A DNA stretch of 26,163 nucleotides. It comes from a virus (taxonomy: Duplodnaviria; Heunggongvirae; Uroviricota; Caudoviricetes). Positions 5,185 through 10,958 of this stretch are shown here, in pieces. Each line of letters opens with the position of its first letter. Positions within the stretch are counted from its first letter, which is position 1. Both the position numbers and the translations under genes were made by a program. Under the pieces are notes generated by a model. That model did no database searches. It saw only the letters and a list, made by a program, of their open reading frames with translations, and had not been told where the DNA came from. The DNA lies in the IMG/VR virus record IMGVR_UViG_2541047960_000003, one strand, 5' to 3'.

Positions 5185-8135
5185 CAGCGGTACTCCTTAC
5201 GTTGTTTCTGAGCCAGCAGACGCTCCAGCATTTTTTCCAGCTCATGCAGACTCATATTCAGGGCACCAGTCAGTCCTGCAGGCGCTGTGGTTTCCCTGCC
5301 ATTGAGGAAAAACTGAGGATTAAAGCTGACCTGGATACCACCAGACGTTCCACCGCCGGTTGCAGCTGCACCACGGCCTGAATATCCGGCAGCCAGGATT
5401 TCAGGCGAGGGGATACGGGGAACATCCGGTGTCATCTCATTTGCCAGACGTTGCCCTGGTAAAATCGATGCCCGGGTGGAGAGCGGAATAGCGGGCATGG
5501 AAGACAAACTATTGATTACGGCTCCGATCGCATTTTTAGCAGACGACATAAACCCATTGATATCGGGCAACGGCATACTGAAGCGAACACCTGAAGTGTT
5601 ATCTCGTATTTCTGGCCCCTGAATGCTCACGGGCATTCTGGGGAGCAGTTCACTGGCCATTCGCTGCCCGGCCAGAGCTGCAAGCGGAGTGGTCCGCTGC
5701 AGGCCAATGGCGGCCCCCTGCGCGATATTGTCACCAAAGCCCATAAACACGCGGCTCGGCGAATGAATGCCCAGCTTTTCGCTGAACCAGCCACTGATGC
5801 TGTCACCCATTCCGGTTACACTGGATTTGAGCGACTCCCATTTGTTTTTGATACCGTTAATCAGACCATCGACAAGATGGCCACCGAAGTCGGTAAACTT
5901 TGCCGGCAGATCAACACCAAGATATTTCAGCGCAACTGCAAAGGCTTTATAGAGCAGACCTGCCGGCGACCAGTTAATCAGCAGCTTACCAGTTCCCGCG
6001 ATACCGCCGTTAAAGGCTTCCTGAATGTCAGCCCAGCACTGTTTAAACCAGCTACTGATGCTGTCACCCATTCCGGTTACACTGGATTTGAGCGACCCCC
6101 ATTTGTTTTTGATACCGTTAATCAGACCGTCGATAAGATGGCCACCGAAGTCGGTGAACTTTGCCGGCAGAGCAACGCCGAAATATTTCAGCGCAGCCGC
6201 AAAGGCTTTATAGAGCAGGCCTGCCGGCGACCAGTTAATCAGCAACTTACCAATTCCCACAATGCCGCCGTTAAAGGCTTCCTGAATGTCTGCCCAGCGC
6301 TGTTTAAACCAGCCACTGACTGCCCCCCAGTTGCGGTAGATAAGGTAAGCTGCTGCCGCGACAGCGGTGATAACGAGACCGATGGGATTCATCATCAGCG
6401 CACGTCCAATCCAGAGAACAGCACGTCCGGCGAGCATAATTCCGCGAACCAGCCCCCCGGAGAGCACGCCACTCAGTGTTCTGGCTCCTCTGGCGACGGC
6501 GCTAAATCCGGTCACCAGCCAGCGGAGCTTACCGCCTTGCCCCAGTGCGAGCGACAGACGAAGCCAGTTGGCCCGAAGTAAAACAGCATTTTTCCAGACA
6601 CTTACAAAGGGGGAAATAAGGAGATTCAGCCCCAGTTTGAGACCAACAGTCGCTATCTTAATCGCAAGGAGCGCACTGATGAGCTTAAAAGCCCCACTGA
6701 CAAATTGCGGGTGAGTCGCTACCCAGTGTTTTGCCCCCTGAATGAGTGGAAGCAGTTCCTGAGTCAAAGAAATAAAAGATGGAGCTAATTGATCGCCCAG
6801 CGTAATTGCCAGATCGCGACTGCTGACCATAAGTGTTTTAGTGGCTTCAAGGGGAGATTTCAGCCGCTGATCATAAGCACTGGCAAGCAAATCGTTATCC
6901 GCAGCCCTGAGAGCACCGGCACGGATCTCTCGATATCTGTCCATGTTGGCCAGCATCGGGCGGATAAATGCCATGACCTGCATATCCGCGAACATATCGC
7001 CCAGACCAAAGTTTTTCGCCAGAGCCTGAAGTGCCTCATCTCTTGCCGTATCATTCTTTATTTTCATGGCTGATTTGAAGCCGGCCAGCGCTTCGGGGCT
7101 TTTGGTATTGAGGTAACGTTCTATAACACTCAACATCCCTTCAATCGGAGAGATCCCCGCAGCTTTATAACTCGCAATAGATCCCTGCAAATCAATACCC
7201 AGATCAGCAAACTGTTTCTGAGTATCGCGGGCAAAAATTTTGGTAAGAAAGTTTTTAAAATTATTGGCTGCTTCGTCGGTGGAACCTGCACCGATTTTTG
7301 CTATCTGGAGACTGGCCCCGATTTCAGCAACAGCCTCTTTTCCACTGGCAATACCCGCCATCATTGGGGCCAGGGACTGCATCCACTTGACCTGATCCGG
7401 GATTTCAAATGACCCCTGGTCACCGGCATAAGCCATAATATTCTGAACGGCACCAAAATCTCTGGCCGCACCTTTCAGGGAGTTTTGCCAGACTGCGGCC
7501 ACTTTTGCCCAGTCCTGAGCAGACGTGCGTGTTGCCGTTGCCGCGCGGGCAATATCCGGCATCAGAAAACCGATATCTGACACATTATCAATATTGTCGC
7601 TGATGAGTGAACCCACCGCCTCCTGCAGCTCATCCTGATACTGATTGTATTTAAGCGCCCAGCCTTTTATCTGTCCGGCAAGTGCATCCCGCGTTTTATT
7701 GTCATATTTTGCGGTGATCGACATATCAATCATTTTGTCCTGAAAAAACATGGACTGCTGAACGGCAGGGGAAACCGTATGATAAACAGTCTGAGCCATG
7801 CCATACGCTTCAATCCCCTGACCATACAGCGCCATGCGGTTAGCTTTCAGCGCATCACTGGTAGCGGATGCCGCTGACAGACGGCGCTGCTGGCGCTCAA
7901 TTTGCTCCATGGTGCGGCTTACCCGCAGCAGCTCGCTGTTGAGATGCTGCATCCGGGAAGAACCCAGTTGACCATAACGTTCTGTTGCACGGGTTAAAGC
8001 GTTCTGACGTTCCTGCAGGCGGCGTGAGGTATCGCTCAGGGAATCAAGCGCACGGCGGGTACCGCTCATTGCAGAACGGAATGTGCTGCCAATCATCCCG
8101 CCGATAACAACGCCGACTGAAAACTGTCCCGACAT
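5184..8135 (-). CDS. tail tape measure protein
   Basis: 983-aa ORF downstream of the tail chaperone pair; coiled-coil N-terminus, Gly/Ala-rich hydrophobic central region, internal tandem repeat; canonical position. Confidence 0.85.
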   Translation of the reverse strand: MSGQFSVGVVIGGMIGSTFRSAMSGTRRALDSLSDTSRRLQERQNALTRATERYGQLGSSRMQHLNSELLRVSRTMEQIERQQRRLSAASATSDALKANRMALYGQGIEAYGMAQTVYHTVSPAVQQSMFFQDKMIDMSITAKYDNKTRDALAGQIKGWALKYNQYQDELQEAVGSLISDNIDNVSDIGFLMPDIARAATATRTSAQDWAKVAAVWQNSLKGAARDFGAVQNIMAYAGDQGSFEIPDQVKWMQSLAPMMAGIASGKEAVAEIGASLQIAKIGAGSTDEAANNFKNFLTKIFARDTQKQFADLGIDLQGSIASYKAAGISPIEGMLSVIERYLNTKSPEALAGFKSAMKIKNDTARDEALQALAKNFGLGDMFADMQVMAFIRPMLANMDRYREIRAGALRAADNDLLASAYDQRLKSPLEATKTLMVSSRDLAITLGDQLAPSFISLTQELLPLIQGAKHWVATHPQFVSGAFKLISALLAIKIATVGLKLGLNLLISPFVSVWKNAVLLRANWLRLSLALGQGGKLRWLVTGFSAVARGARTLSGVLSGGLVRGIMLAGRAVLWIGRALMMNPIGLVITAVAAAAYLIYRNWGAVSGWFKQRWADIQEAFNGGIVGIGKLLINWSPAGLLYKAFAAALKYFGVALPAKFTDFGGHLIDGLINGIKNKWGSLKSSVTGMGDSISSWFKQCWADIQEAFNGGIAGTGKLLINWSPAGLLYKAFAVALKYLGVDLPAKFTDFGGHLVDGLINGIKNKWESLKSSVTGMGDSISGWFSEKLGIHSPSRVFMGFGDNIAQGAAIGLQRTTPLAALAGQRMASELLPRMPVSIQGPEIRDNTSGVRFSMPLPDINGFMSSAKNAIGAVINSLSSMPAIPLSTRASILPGQRLANEMTPDVPRIPSPEILAAGYSGRGAAATGGGTSGGIQVSFNPQFFLNGRETTAPAGLTGALNMSLHELEKMLERLLAQKQRKEYR
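5779..6322. repeat. in-frame tandem duplication (2 x 261 bp plus ~22 bp of a third unit) inside the tape measure gene
   Basis: Unit starts at ~5779 and ~6040 (aaccagcYactgatgctgtcacccattccggttacactggatttgagcga...), begins again at ~6301 then diverges. Encodes two ~87-aa protein repeats (SWFKQRWADIQEAFNGG... / SWFKQCWADIQEAFNGG...). Also explains the near-identical antisense ORFs 5767..5952 and 6025..6213. Confidence 0.85.
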
Positions 8136-8210
8136 AGTGGTTAACCTCCGGGGAAGGTGAAAAGACGTGAGGGGATAACGCAGAACAGCCGCTACTGGCG
8201 GCTGTCTGTA

Positions 8211-8628
8211 CTATGATTTGTCGCCGTACTCGCTTTTGATTTGCTCTTCAGCCTGCTCCAGCCACATCTCCAGATCGTCAGTATCGAGGGCATCAATCTC
8301 CCCCGGCTGAAACCGGAACCATCTCGCCAGCAGCCCCTGCGCCTGCGTCAGCGCCCTGGTTGCTCTCACCCATCCCCGTGATGAGCTGAAATCGTTTCTG
8401 TAACTGCAGGTAATCAGCCAGATCCATATTGTCGAGATCTTCCGGGAGAAGACCAGTACTGCGGGCAATCAGCGGTTCGTCCCAGTCTGCCGGGTTTTTG
8501 TTGATTTTGCGCACCTGCTTCAGGTCTTTTACCGTCAGGCGTTTCAGTTCAACCAGCTCAATTCTGGTACCTGCAGCAGTGGTGAAGGGATAAGACAATT
8601 TAAAAGTATCGGATGGGGTCTGTGACAT
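8211..8628 (-). CDS. candidate frameshift-extended chaperone (E+E'-like fusion); shift site proposed at G-run 8299-8307
   Basis: Second-frame ORF 8211..8468 gives a protein-like acidic tail (...PGEIDALDTDDLEMWLEQAEEQIKSEYGDKS) ending just before the tape measure start. mRNA ...GCC GGG GGA GAU UGA has a 5-G run beside the 0-frame stop. Exact site and direction are inferred. Confidence 0.4.
8293..8628 (-). CDS. tail assembly chaperone (P2 gpE-like)
   Basis: 111-aa ORF between tail tube and tape measure; SD ACAGGAGCACAATC before ATG at 8626-8628; overlaps a second-frame ORF as expected for the frameshifted chaperone pair. Confidence 0.6.
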   Translation of the reverse strand: MSQTPSDTFKLSYPFTTAAGTRIELVELKRLTVKDLKQVRKINKNPADWDEPLIARSTGLLPEDLDNMDLADYLQLQKRFQLITGMGESNQGADAGAGAAGEMVPVSAGGD

Positions 8629-8718: not shown

Positions 8719-9009
8719 TGTGATGTCAGCAAGTGCGAAACCCCTTGCAGTTACGCAGGAAAGCGATGAGAAGCGTCTTTCCCTCAGATTTGTCGGTGCC
8801 GGAGAACCAGTGGTCGGGAGGCTCCTATGCTTCAATCAAATCCGCCAGTTTGCGGGCCTTTGAACGTGTGCAGTCAATCGGGTCATTGGTTTTACGGGTA
8901 TTAAAAAGGGTTTCCACCCCCGGAATATCAAGGAGGGTAAACCACGTACCATTTGACATGCCCAGTGCCGCACATCGTCCTCCTTTATCCGTCAGTTCAA
9001 CACTCACCG

Positions 9010-9531
9010 TCAGCCCCCGATATTGATACGGTAGTCAGTCAGTTGATCAACACCTCCGACCCGGAAGATGTTGGCCAGATAGTCCAGTTGCAGCAGCTCT
9101 TCACCATCCAGTACCTGTCTGATATACGTGCAGGTGAAGCTACTGGAGAACTCGGCGTTCTCGTGCTGTTTGAACGTCCCCAGCGGGTTCTTCTTGAACA
9201 TAATCGTCAGGAAGGTGACCAGCGGGATTTCGTCAATCAGCCCCTGCGAGCTGTAGCGCTGGACGCTGGAACGACACTGCAGTGCCAGCGACCTGTACGG
9301 GTTCGCGGCAGACAGCATCGCATCGCGGTAAAAGCTGTTCCATTTGATTTCGCCTTCCAGTTTGTCAAAACCAGCCGGGAGTTCCACCTTACCCACCATC
9401 CCCAGCGCCTTGTGTTCCTGCATAATCATGGAGACATCGGGGAGTTTAACTTCCTCAGCCCGTCCCAGCAGGTTAGTACCATCCAGATAGATGTTGGCAT
9501 TCGTGATGCGGTTTATCTCAATCTTTGACAT
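9010..9531 (-). CDS. tail tube protein (P2 FII-like)
   Basis: 173-aa ORF immediately after the sheath gene (start overlaps sheath stop at 9531); size and position typical. Confidence 0.75.
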   Translation of the reverse strand: MSKIEINRITNANIYLDGTNLLGRAEEVKLPDVSMIMQEHKALGMVGKVELPAGFDKLEGEIKWNSFYRDAMLSAANPYRSLALQCRSSVQRYSSQGLIDEIPLVTFLTIMFKKNPLGTFKQHENAEFSSSFTCTYIRQVLDGEELLQLDYLANIFRVGGVDQLTDYRINIGG

Positions 9532-10958
9532 CAGTTGCCCCCTTTCAGGGTTAACAGGTATTCCGAGGTGATCTCAGTCTCAAACGTCAGTCGCTCCAGC
9601 GGCGGTGGTGGCGTATATTTGTAGCTCAGCAACAGGTGCCCGGCGGCCAGCTCCGTCTCCGGATTGCGGGCCGGATCAAACCAGCAACGGAAGCCCAGTA
9701 CCGCACCATCACCAGTCATTTTGCGACCGTAGGCGTTGACCGACTCCGTCAGTGCATCAATCAGCGCCTGAGTAATCGGCATGTCGATGTACTGCTGGCT
9801 GAAATAACGAATGGACTCGTTGATCACATCACCGGTGCGGCGAACGTTCTCAAAGTTACGCATATGGGTGACCGTTGGCCATGCTGCCGTCCGGTTACCC
9901 CACAGACGAAGGCCGCTGCCGTAACTGCTGAATACCGTGGTGATCCCCTGTTCGTTAAGCAGGTTCACCTCACTCTGCGGGTCATCAATCATCGCGGACA
10001 GCTGGCGCTCCACGCCGGTGATCCCCAGAATCTCCTGATTGGAGGATGACCACCAGTAGCCCTTGTCCAGATCGACTCTGGCACGCAGACCTGCTGCACG
10101 CTGGCTGAGCGGCTCCAGACGCTCTGTGTTTGTCACCGGGTCATATACCTTCACATGCGGATAGCACAGACGGACGCGGTCGGAGCTGGTATTGAAGTTG
10201 ATGGTGCCTTCCGGGCCACGACCTGCCAGAGCCTGTGCAAAGGTGGTACCGACAGGCGCATCAATGTAGGTTACCGCGCCCAGCTTCTCTGCCATGGCGA
10301 TAAGCTCAACTGCGACACTCTTCTGGGTGCAGAACACCGGCGCAATCAGAATTTTGGCGAAATAGCCGTACAGGTTGAAGCTGTCGTTAAGCAGCTTCAT
10401 GCCGGTTCGGTTTCCGGCGCTGTTCACCCCGCCGATGATGTCCGCCGCAGTCACCTTCGACGGGTCCGCGTACTCATAGCTCACCTTCACGCTGCCACCG
10501 GCCTCAATAGCCTTGCCCAGGTTCGTGAGCACACCCGCCTGCGCATCAACACGGTAGTCCGTGTTCGCCGTGTGGGTGGTGCTGCCTTCACTGTTTTTCA
10601 CCACCACATTAGCGACAACCGGATGCGCCAGTCTGGCCTGCCCTGTCGATTTGTCAAAGGTAACCACCTCATCCTCGATCGCCGTTTTATGTTTCGCCGG
10701 GTCGAGGACGTTAATGACCAGAACGGTACCTGCACCATGGTCATAAATCGCATCCAGCGCCTGCGGAATGGTAAAGCCGGTGAACTGGCTGCCAAATGCC
10801 GCTGCGTCTTTCTCAGACAGGCACTGTACCAGCGTATTGACATCCCCCATCGGGGCGGTACCAATCAGGCCAATAACGGCAGATTTCACCGTTTTAACCG
10901 GGCGGGCACCGTTTTCCACCTCAATGGTTTCGGGACCATGCAGATAGTTAGCTGCCAT
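9531..10958 (-). CDS. contractile tail sheath protein
   Basis: 475-aa ORF upstream of the tube gene; length and position match a myovirus sheath. Confidence 0.8.
   Translation of the reverse strand: MAANYLHGPETIEVENGARPVKTVKSAVIGLIGTAPMGDVNTLVQCLSEKDAAAFGSQFTGFTIPQALDAIYDHGAGTVLVINVLDPAKHKTAIEDEVVTFDKSTGQARLAHPVVANVVVKNSEGSTTHTANTDYRVDAQAGVLTNLGKAIEAGGSVKVSYEYADPSKVTAADIIGGVNSAGNRTGMKLLNDSFNLYGYFAKILIAPVFCTQKSVAVELIAMAEKLGAVTYIDAPVGTTFAQALAGRGPEGTINFNTSSDRVRLCYPHVKVYDPVTNTERLEPLSQRAAGLRARVDLDKGYWWSSSNQEILGITGVERQLSAMIDDPQSEVNLLNEQGITTVFSSYGSGLRLWGNRTAAWPTVTHMRNFENVRRTGDVINESIRYFSQQYIDMPITQALIDALTESVNAYGRKMTGDGAVLGFRCWFDPARNPETELAAGHLLLSYKYTPPPPLERLTFETEITSEYLLTLKGGN

Follow-up and report, generated by a model that had tools for sequence, protein, structure and literature searches.

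The stretch analysed here (the window, 26,163 nucleotides from IMG/VR virus record IMGVR_UViG_2541047960_000003, a tailed virus of the Caudoviricetes) carries on its minus strand a gene for a tail assembly chaperone, overlapped towards its 3' end by a second protein-like reading in another frame, and the comparative evidence assembled below suggests that the two are joined by a +1 ribosomal slip (Table 1). The chaperone matches Pfam PF10109 (Phage_TAC_7, E=8e-21, residues 8-81, 74 bits against a cut-off of 25), a family described as including P2 gpE, Mu gp41 and gp14 ('E, or 41 or 14'). It also matches PHROG 166 tail protein and carries the RefSeq name 'phage tail assembly protein', while NCBIfam holds no model that matches either the chaperone or its extension.

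Table 1. The chaperone locus and its neighbours, in positions of the window.
Feature	Position	Strand	Remarks
Proposed +1 shift site CGA UUU C	8388..8394	minus	Arg79 CGA 8394-8392, Phe80 UUU 8391-8389, then C8388
+1-frame continuation after the proposed shift	8211..8387	minus	58 codons SSSRGWVRATRALTQAQGLLARWFRFQPGEIDALDTDDLEMWLEQAEEQIKSEYGDKS and stop TAG 8213..8211
E'-like domain core QAQGLLARWFRFQPGEIDALDTDDLEMWLEQAEE	8244..8345	minus	homologous to E' of gpE+E', which P2 reads in the -1 frame
Unconstrained frame-0 C-terminal tail, residues 81-111	8296..8387	minus	overlapped by the +1 reading
G5 run	8300..8304	minus	inside +1-frame codons CCG GGG GAG (Pro-Gly-Glu) of the E'-like domain
Tail assembly chaperone gene, P2 gpE / Mu gp41 family, 111 aa	8628..8293	minus	stop TGA 8295..8293
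Tail sheath gene	10958..9531	minus
Tail tube gene, P2 FII type	9010..9531	minus	Pfam PF04985 E=3e-53
Small open reading frame between tube and chaperone genes	8726-9007	minus
Tape measure gene, 983 aa	5184..8135	minus	Pfam PF10145, PHROG 28, RefSeq 'phage tail tape measure protein'

The chaperone frame (frame 0) closes with GCC GGG GGA GAU UGA (8306-8293), including a run of five G residues at 8304..8300, just as the first-pass annotation of this DNA had reported. The peptide PGEIDALDTDDLEMWLEQAEEQIKSEYGDKS, encoded at 8306..8214 with its stop at 8213..8211, is read one base 3' of that frame, that is in +1 or equivalently -2, and this claimed relation is likewise borne out by translation. However, the protein-like extension does not begin at PGEID: the +1 frame is open from 8470 to 8214, and its protein-like reading extends upstream through ...GLLARWFRFQ, back to 8390. 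A -1 site lying further upstream, which had been kept as an alternative, is excluded by frame arithmetic together with the many stops that close the -1 frame.

An hhalign comparison of the family alignment (A3) with P2 E' gave a probability of 92.7% (E=4e-7), with the alignment running from QAQGLLARWF, and the E' homology starts at QAQGLLARWFRFQP, which is 14 residues ahead of the Pro-Gly-Glu coded by the G-run. PF06528 (Phage_P2_GpE) was matched by 9 of 17 family members (best E=8e-8); the window's own extension peptide scores E=0.004 and 17 bits against this model, below the Pfam cut-off of 23, and matches PHROG 8286 with E=1e-15.

To place the change of frame we used a sample of 85 close relatives (54-99% identity in the chaperone, 58 distinct sequences), collected from genomes of the species and from IMG/VR, to which about 65 more distant loci were added from Salmonella, Ralstonia and Pseudomonas lineages, located by four single-protein scans, together with BcepMu, P2, a Pasteurella phage and Mu. 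The extension lies in the +1/-2 frame relative to the chaperone in 146 of the 152 related loci and in the window; these 146 +1-type loci span Enterobacteria, Ralstonia and Pseudomonas, with BcepMu examined separately. At each locus the region permitted for a shift was taken to run from the last +1-frame stop to the chaperone-frame stop.

Codon-position entropy and the ratio of nonsynonymous to synonymous polymorphism (pN/pS) both show that constraint moves from the chaperone frame upstream of the proposed site to the +1 frame downstream of it. Upstream (8598-8395) pN/pS is 0.19 in frame 0 and 1.44 in the +1 frame. Between 8343 and 8296, a segment that reaches to the chaperone-frame stop and includes the G-run, the +1 frame has a value of 0.03 and the chaperone frame one of 14.4; over 8292-8217 the +1-frame value is 0.35. 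Between these regions lies a linker of 14 codons with weak constraint in either frame (8385-8344, 0.69 in frame 0 and 0.47 in the +1 frame), and here the motifs common to the lineages in the +1 reading just past the Phe codon are a Trp near +6 and an LW before LLARWF.

The end of the chaperone frame, by comparison, is free to move, with stops among the relatives at TAG 8358, TAG 8316 (36 of the 58 distinct sequences), TGA 8301 and TGA 8295. In fact the commonest allele in our protein collection, and the commonest in E. coli, is a 90-residue form (P0014, 914 contigs, against 487 for the 111-residue P0020) that stops at codon 91, TAG 8358, through a CAG to TAG change at 8356-8358, where the window has CAG; the same change is a synonymous ACC to ACT in the +1 frame. 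The TAG-at-8358 allele is also present in L030, L031 and H33.

It is within this setting that the sequence CGA UUU C stands out. In the window the local sequence reads CAG AAA CGA UUU CAG, 32 codons ahead of the frame-0 stop and about 30 codons upstream of the G-run. An in-frame UUU_C is found at one homologous Phe codon in all 146 +1-type loci (94 distinct contexts), and also in BcepMu. The Phe codon at this position is UUU in 109/109 distinct open reading frames (ORFs), whereas elsewhere in the same ORFs UUU and UUC occur 99 and 113 times (47% UUU), and the Arg codon before it is CGA in 94/94 cases, against 56 of 530 Arg codons elsewhere (11%). Among the close relatives CGATTTCA (8394-8387) is invariant in 58/58, synonymous positions included, while neighbouring third positions vary freely; only 5 of the 49 conserved degenerate codons in the gene use a single codon, and 3 of these are the consecutive AAA CGA UUU. 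In the multi-lineage alignment of 27 sequences the site forms the longest fully invariant block. Lineages with another 5' codon (GUG, GCA, GCG, ACG, AAA, and UCC in BcepMu) still retain UUU_C, and the codon 3' of UUU begins with C in all +1-type loci, the A-site codons being CAG, CAA, CUG and CGG.

The stops of the separate lineages narrow the choice from both sides. The nearest +1-frame stop ends 8 nucleotides upstream of UUU (in the Ralstonia and Pseudomonas Komp groups), the nearest frame-0 stop comes 9 codons after it (L105/L109; 10 in the Bise group), and in the E. coli lineage the TAG 8358 allele puts the shift no later than codon 90. Provided that the lineages share one position for the site, the shift must fall within about 12 codons, from some 3 upstream to 9 downstream of UUU, and the only motif shared within this permitted stretch is the in-frame UUU_C.

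Taken together, we suggest with a probability of roughly 80% that a +1 ribosomal slip at CGA UUU C yields an E+E'-like fusion protein of 138 residues, a reading which rests on sequence comparison. In the proposed mechanism most ribosomes would stay in frame and make the 111-residue chaperone with its unconstrained last 31 residues, and a minority would slip by +1 with tRNA-Phe on UUU (8391-8389) in the P site. The tRNA could re-pair perfectly from UUU to the overlapping UUC (8390-8388), with AGC as the next codon, so that the product would be ...LQLQKRF followed by SSSRGWVRATRALTQAQGLLARWFRFQPGEIDALDTDDLEMWLEQAEEQIKSEYGDKS (80 + 58 = 138 residues). Such a fusion would read ...LQLQKRF-SSSRGW...GLLARWFRFQPGEIDALD...GDKS, its C-terminal part being the presumed counterpart of P2 E', and the junction peptide expected of a +1 slip at UUU_C would be ...LQLQKRFSSSRGWVR. 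On the model of lambda G/GT and P2 E/E+E', the N-terminal domain common to both products may bind the tape measure protein and the extension may recruit the tube protein, with the shift setting a fixed low ratio of the two products; judging from lambda, P2 and Mu, an efficiency of a few per cent would suffice.

The invariant and rare CGA 5' of UUU, which would occupy the E site with a weak I:A wobble pair, is probably a stimulator. We take it as a candidate for a selected one: in RF2, +1 shifting is promoted when pairing in the E site is weak, as an I:A wobble pair is (PMC5009743), and E. coli seldom uses CGA (3.8 per thousand; PMC3498833). A precedent is influenza A PA-X, in which a P-site slip occurs on UUU_C in UCC_UUU_CGU and the E-site codon matters; a site class composed of UUU_C with restricted E- and A-site codons has in fact been predicted (PMC3498833). 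A Ty3-like variant, in which CGA would sit in the P site and Phe-tRNA would bind out of frame on UUC, would result in the same peptide and is not distinguishable here from the slip on UUU. Nothing supports a Mu-type -2 shift at CGA UUU C, where GAU cannot pair with tRNA-Phe and UUC cannot pair with the next tRNA. The sequences themselves show how the two frames relate, that both halves have homologues, within what limits the shift must fall, and that CGA UUU C is conserved at synonymous positions. We infer the ribosomal nature of the shift, its +1 rather than -2 direction, its efficiency and the roles of both products.

Several considerations weigh against this proposal. The fusion is a prediction from sequence comparison in this family, and the sequences compared share ancestry, so that counts such as 109/109 are not independent trials. 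The argument from the stops assumes that the position of the site is conserved across lineages, and protein conservation by itself does not pin UUU_C as against a few codons downstream, because the two frames of the linker are about equally weakly constrained. By count CGATTTC is not a rare sequence (3 in the window against 3.5 expected). Moreover, the A-site codon is not rare, no Shine-Dalgarno (SD)-like element is evident upstream of the site, and the multi-lineage consensus downstream of it is almost structureless, with no covariation to speak of (-1.9 kcal/mol); the efficiency may therefore be low. A downstream RNA stimulator was considered and set aside, as the single-sequence fold is modestly better than shuffles (z = -2.5) and the multi-lineage consensus lends it no support. 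In that single-sequence fold (8290-8394, minimum free energy -43 kcal/mol) CGAUUUC pairs with GAGAUUG just past the G-run, about 90 nucleotides downstream, a pairing for which no support was found across lineages.

Other explanations were weighed against a slip at CGA UUU C, beginning with the G-run, where the first-pass annotation had placed the recoding as a +1 (or -2) event at a shifty stop. Its broader idea of a tail-chaperone fusion made by recoding in the +1 direction is the one we favour too, on comparative evidence, and the run does lie near the end of the frame, although a GAU codon separates it from the stop, which is thus not a 'shifty stop'. A shift by the stop (8306-8293), either +1 or Mu-like -2, would give ...VSAG(G)EIDALD..., and in the window it is feasible on pairing grounds: the chaperone frame is still open there, tRNA-Gly on GGG 8303-8301 can re-pair to GGG 8302-8300 for +1, tRNA-Gly on GGA can re-pair to GGG for -2, and the verified -2 shift of Mu also takes place on a G5 run (CGG GGG CGA). 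However, the relatives have CCT GTG GAG, CCG AGT GAG, CCT GGG GAG or CCA GGG GAG at this position, which are the +1-frame codons for Pro-Gly/Ser-Glu with no conserved run, and in 36 of the 58 distinct close relatives, as well as in the commonest allele P0014, the chaperone frame has already stopped, so that in most relatives a ribosome in that frame never reaches the place. A fusion made there would miss the first 14 residues of the E'-like domain (QAQGLLARWFRFQP), which are conserved, and around the run it is the +1 frame that is constrained (pN/pS 0.03, against 14 for frame 0). G5 runs are also common in the window (47, with about 68 expected from shuffles). The unconserved run, the upstream stops, the E' homology and the +1-frame selection together indicate that ribosomes making the functional product are in the +1 frame well before the G-run. 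When the comparison with related phages proposed in the first-pass annotation was run, the conserved site proved to be CGA UUU C at 8394-8388 and not the G-run, which as a conserved functional site is largely refuted and as the point of the shift seems very unlikely, though it may give a minor adventitious product in this strain. A GGC GGG GGA run also occurs in three loci of the Ralstonia group (L091, L120, L124), about 15 codons past UUU_C and just before KLLARWF; it occupies another position than the window's run, is absent from L121-L123 and L125-L131, and is probably a by-product of G-rich codons.

A shift into the +1 frame elsewhere in the linker, a few codons past UUU_C and possibly at lineage-specific sites, is unlikely, but it draws on the long permitted region in the window (8470-8296) and on the lack of a clear frame preference in the linker. 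Candidates in the E. coli lineage are ACG GGG AUG (8379-8371) and GCA GGG GCU (8340-8332), where GGG_G at 8337-8334 would allow perfect +1 re-pairing. These G-runs nevertheless vary among close relatives (GGG C/T/A at 8334; ACT GGG CTG at 8379-8371), and synonymous variation in the +1 frame (GCN 8363-8361, ACN 8360-8358 and 8348-8346) shows the +1 reading to be in use already upstream of 8340. A +1 slip at GCA GGG G (8340-8334) was rejected in particular, position 8334 varying between G, C, A and T as a +1-frame synonymous position. Neither a linker site nor an internal start would explain the conservation at CGA UUU C, in the one case its invariance at synonymous sites and in the other the conserved UUU_C. 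The second of these readings, in which there is no frameshift and an E'-like peptide is made from its own +1-frame start codon, appears in a few RefSeq genomes in which the Prokaryotic Genome Annotation Pipeline (PGAP) calls a separate 'GpE family phage tail protein' coding sequence, and possible starts do exist (a GTG 7 codons after UUC in the window, an ATG just before ALLARWF in the Salmonella lineage). Yet no start codon is positionally conserved, the best position being start-capable in 33/94 sequences with 8/94 having no start-capable codon at all; an SD-like match was found for only 4/94, and in P2, by the curated record, the homologous E' is made solely as part of the E+E' fusion. We regard separate initiation as decidedly improbable. 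The least probable of the readings, and hardly credible to us, is a fusion made at the RNA or DNA level by transcriptional slippage or homopolymer variation at the G5 run. Its attraction lies in recurrent one-nucleotide deletions at or beside the run in public assemblies, which give in-frame ORFs of 138 residues (L084; P0003-P0005, P0007), and one-base deletions in or beside the run are also listed for locus L089 and for proteins P0008-P0009. Such in-frame fusions are found on some 20-25 contigs, whereas the standard arrangement occurs on more than 1,400. Sibling entries (P0006, P0015, P0019, P0023) have several other frame errors typical of assembly or sequencing error, and other single-ORF versions are joined elsewhere, at a GGG run (P0001) or an A5 run (P0002). 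The run is unconserved, which also speaks against slippage there, and five G residues are short for polymerase slippage. The single-ORF versions probably reflect errors of sequencing or assembly at homopolymers, or else defective prophages, and they lend transcriptional slippage no support. We had considered the natural 138-residue proteins as markers of the junction, but they join at scattered homopolymers and were taken as indels or assembly errors.

A slip at CGA UUU C would also account for how the locus has been annotated. No fusion is annotated among the database records of PhiKM, the RefSeq genomes and the relatives that we examined: the record of Escherichia phage PhiKM has only 'tail protein E', and RefSeq lists a 'phage tail assembly protein' by itself, now and then joined by a 'GpE family phage tail protein' as a gene of its own, and once with the false flag 'pseudogene, internal stop'. 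The pseudogene call falls on the P0014 allele, yet its chaperone domain and the proposed shift site are intact. In BcepMu the record (L156, AY539836, 4603-5364) assigns slippage to gp42/gp43, as a G/T-like pair. In the BcepMu sequence, gp41 is an E-like chaperone with UCC UUU CGC and gp42 an E'-like ORF in its +1 frame, and to judge from these sequences the annotated slippage seems misplaced. Our search of the literature and databases, which did not take in the tables of Xu et al. 2004, turned up no account of a +1 UUU_C site in this family. The +1 UUU_C model thus corrects the site given in the first-pass annotation and explains the annotation gap in hundreds of E. coli genomes. It would further give predictors a simple rule for recovering this class, which is to look for UUU_C in frame where the PF10109 domain ends, together with an E'-like domain read in +1; frameshift prediction tools at present handle forward shifts poorly (PMC10274946). 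We do not claim a new mechanism, because tail-chaperone frameshifting is textbook knowledge, -1, -2 and +1 shifts are all known, and UUU_C is an established +1 site.

The surroundings of the chaperone gene are those of a tail module. Tube, chaperone and tape measure genes follow one another on the minus strand in the lambda G/GT-type arrangement, the tape measure gene being the expected downstream neighbour of a chaperone frameshift pair, and a P2 gpU-like gene comes next after it. Over 600 bases around the site the identity to PhiKM, a phage assigned to Bcepmuvirus, is 99.5%; of 5,426 complete genomes of E. coli, 641 have the site region, often in sequence type 131 (ST131), and prophage relatives occur in Salmonella, Klebsiella, Ralstonia, Pseudomonas and Burkholderia. 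The window carries the tail module of a BcepMu-like (Bcepmuvirus) E. coli prophage with a P2-type contractile tail.

Some further features were seen in the neighbouring genes. The small ORF between the tube and chaperone genes encodes 93 residues in PhiKM; in the window a TGG to TAG change (8827-8825) leaves 60, and in another strain RefSeq labels the same ORF 'frameshifted'. Within the tape measure gene (5785-6319, minus strand) a 261-bp unit is repeated in tandem (2.0 copies, 92% match), giving two 87-residue repeats, and the PhiKM record has a sequencing gap within this gene; an altered tape measure length would alter the length of the tail. Between the extension stop and the tape measure start lies a hairpin (CAGCCGC-CAGTA-GCGGCTG, followed by UUCUG; 8186-8204, minus strand), which is retained in relatives with a changed stem, for example GCAGCC...GGCUGC. 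A terminator scan of the gap between extension and tape measure gene was negative and did not call this hairpin, which may be a partial terminator or an mRNA-stability element.

Among known systems, a close counterpart is the gpE/gpE+E' pair of P2, where a -1 programmed frameshift takes place at G GUU UUU UG (curated record AF063097). The gene occupies the same place between the tube and tape measure genes, both protein parts are homologous, and the P2 site likewise lies at the C-terminal edge of the chaperone domain, at most 3 alignment columns from the Phe codon considered here and also on a Phe UUU. The linker from shift site to the WF/FHW motif is similar too, at about 21 residues here and about 25 in P2. 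However, the P2 slip is by -1, on a heptamer rich in U that precedes the E stop by 7 codons, while here the extension is in the +1 frame and the proposed site lies 32 codons before the stop, and the X_XXY_YYZ heptamer (of the U_UUU_UUG type that defines P2) is absent. The first-pass annotation was right that P2 is a -1 case, but its view of a +1 shift as unusual is overstated, since tailed phages use -1, -2 or +1 at this point (PMC5009743).

The gp41/gp41-42 pair of Mu belongs to the same Pfam family, PF10109, holds the same place in a Mu-like genome and shows the same +1/-2 frame relation; its frameshift is a verified -2 event (PMID 15469818 as cited in AF083977) with an efficiency of about 2.2% (PMC3498833). 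The shift site of Mu is CGG GGG CGA; it precedes the stop by 8 codons and lies inside a 12-codon permitted window. At the codon homologous to the present site Mu has UUC C, which is not slippery, its own shift coming 29 codons further on. Unlike Mu, the present family has no conserved G-run inside the permitted overlap, and -2 re-pairing is impossible at CGA UUU C. Among +1 sites of the UUU_Y/UUU_C type, those of Yersinia YopN-TyeA, influenza A PA-X and FseA of the Mesorhizobium integrative and conjugative element (ICE) share the same tetranucleotide (PMC5009743, PMC3498833), and the resemblance extends to a tRNA-Phe that re-pairs on cognate UUC, to a slip that needs no adjacent stop and to a conserved, restricted 5' (E-site) codon. 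They differ in belonging to other genes and hosts; here, moreover, CGA is the usual codon on the 5' side, the one on the 3' side is not rare, and the function is predicted from comparative data. The BcepMu site, UCC UUU CGC, is nearly the PA-X cassette.

The gpG/gpGT pair of lambda, which uses a -1 shift at G GGA AAG, stands for a tail-chaperone frameshift conserved in long-tailed phages (PMC5009743). Its logic and position are the same, with two proteins of common N-terminus made in a fixed ratio from a gene just upstream of the tape measure gene, but direction and motif are different, and the likeness is one of arrangement which we do not claim from sequence similarity. Comparison of the sites across members thus indicates that the family combining PF10109 with E' uses -1 in P2, Pasteurella AFS-2018a and L139, -2 in Mu and, according to this analysis, +1 in the BcepMu-like phages and their relatives. 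The family thereby offers a comparative system in which the direction of the shift changes in evolution and both protein halves are kept, and it allows the effect of the E-site codon CGA on bacterial +1 slippage to be tested. We would tentatively go one step further, giving the idea somewhat less than even weight, and propose that all three directions may be used at the same domain boundary and that the +1 branch could represent, in bacteria and in nature, the class that Firth et al. predicted, with the strictly conserved CGA as an E-site stimulator working without a stop codon, an SD element or RNA structure.

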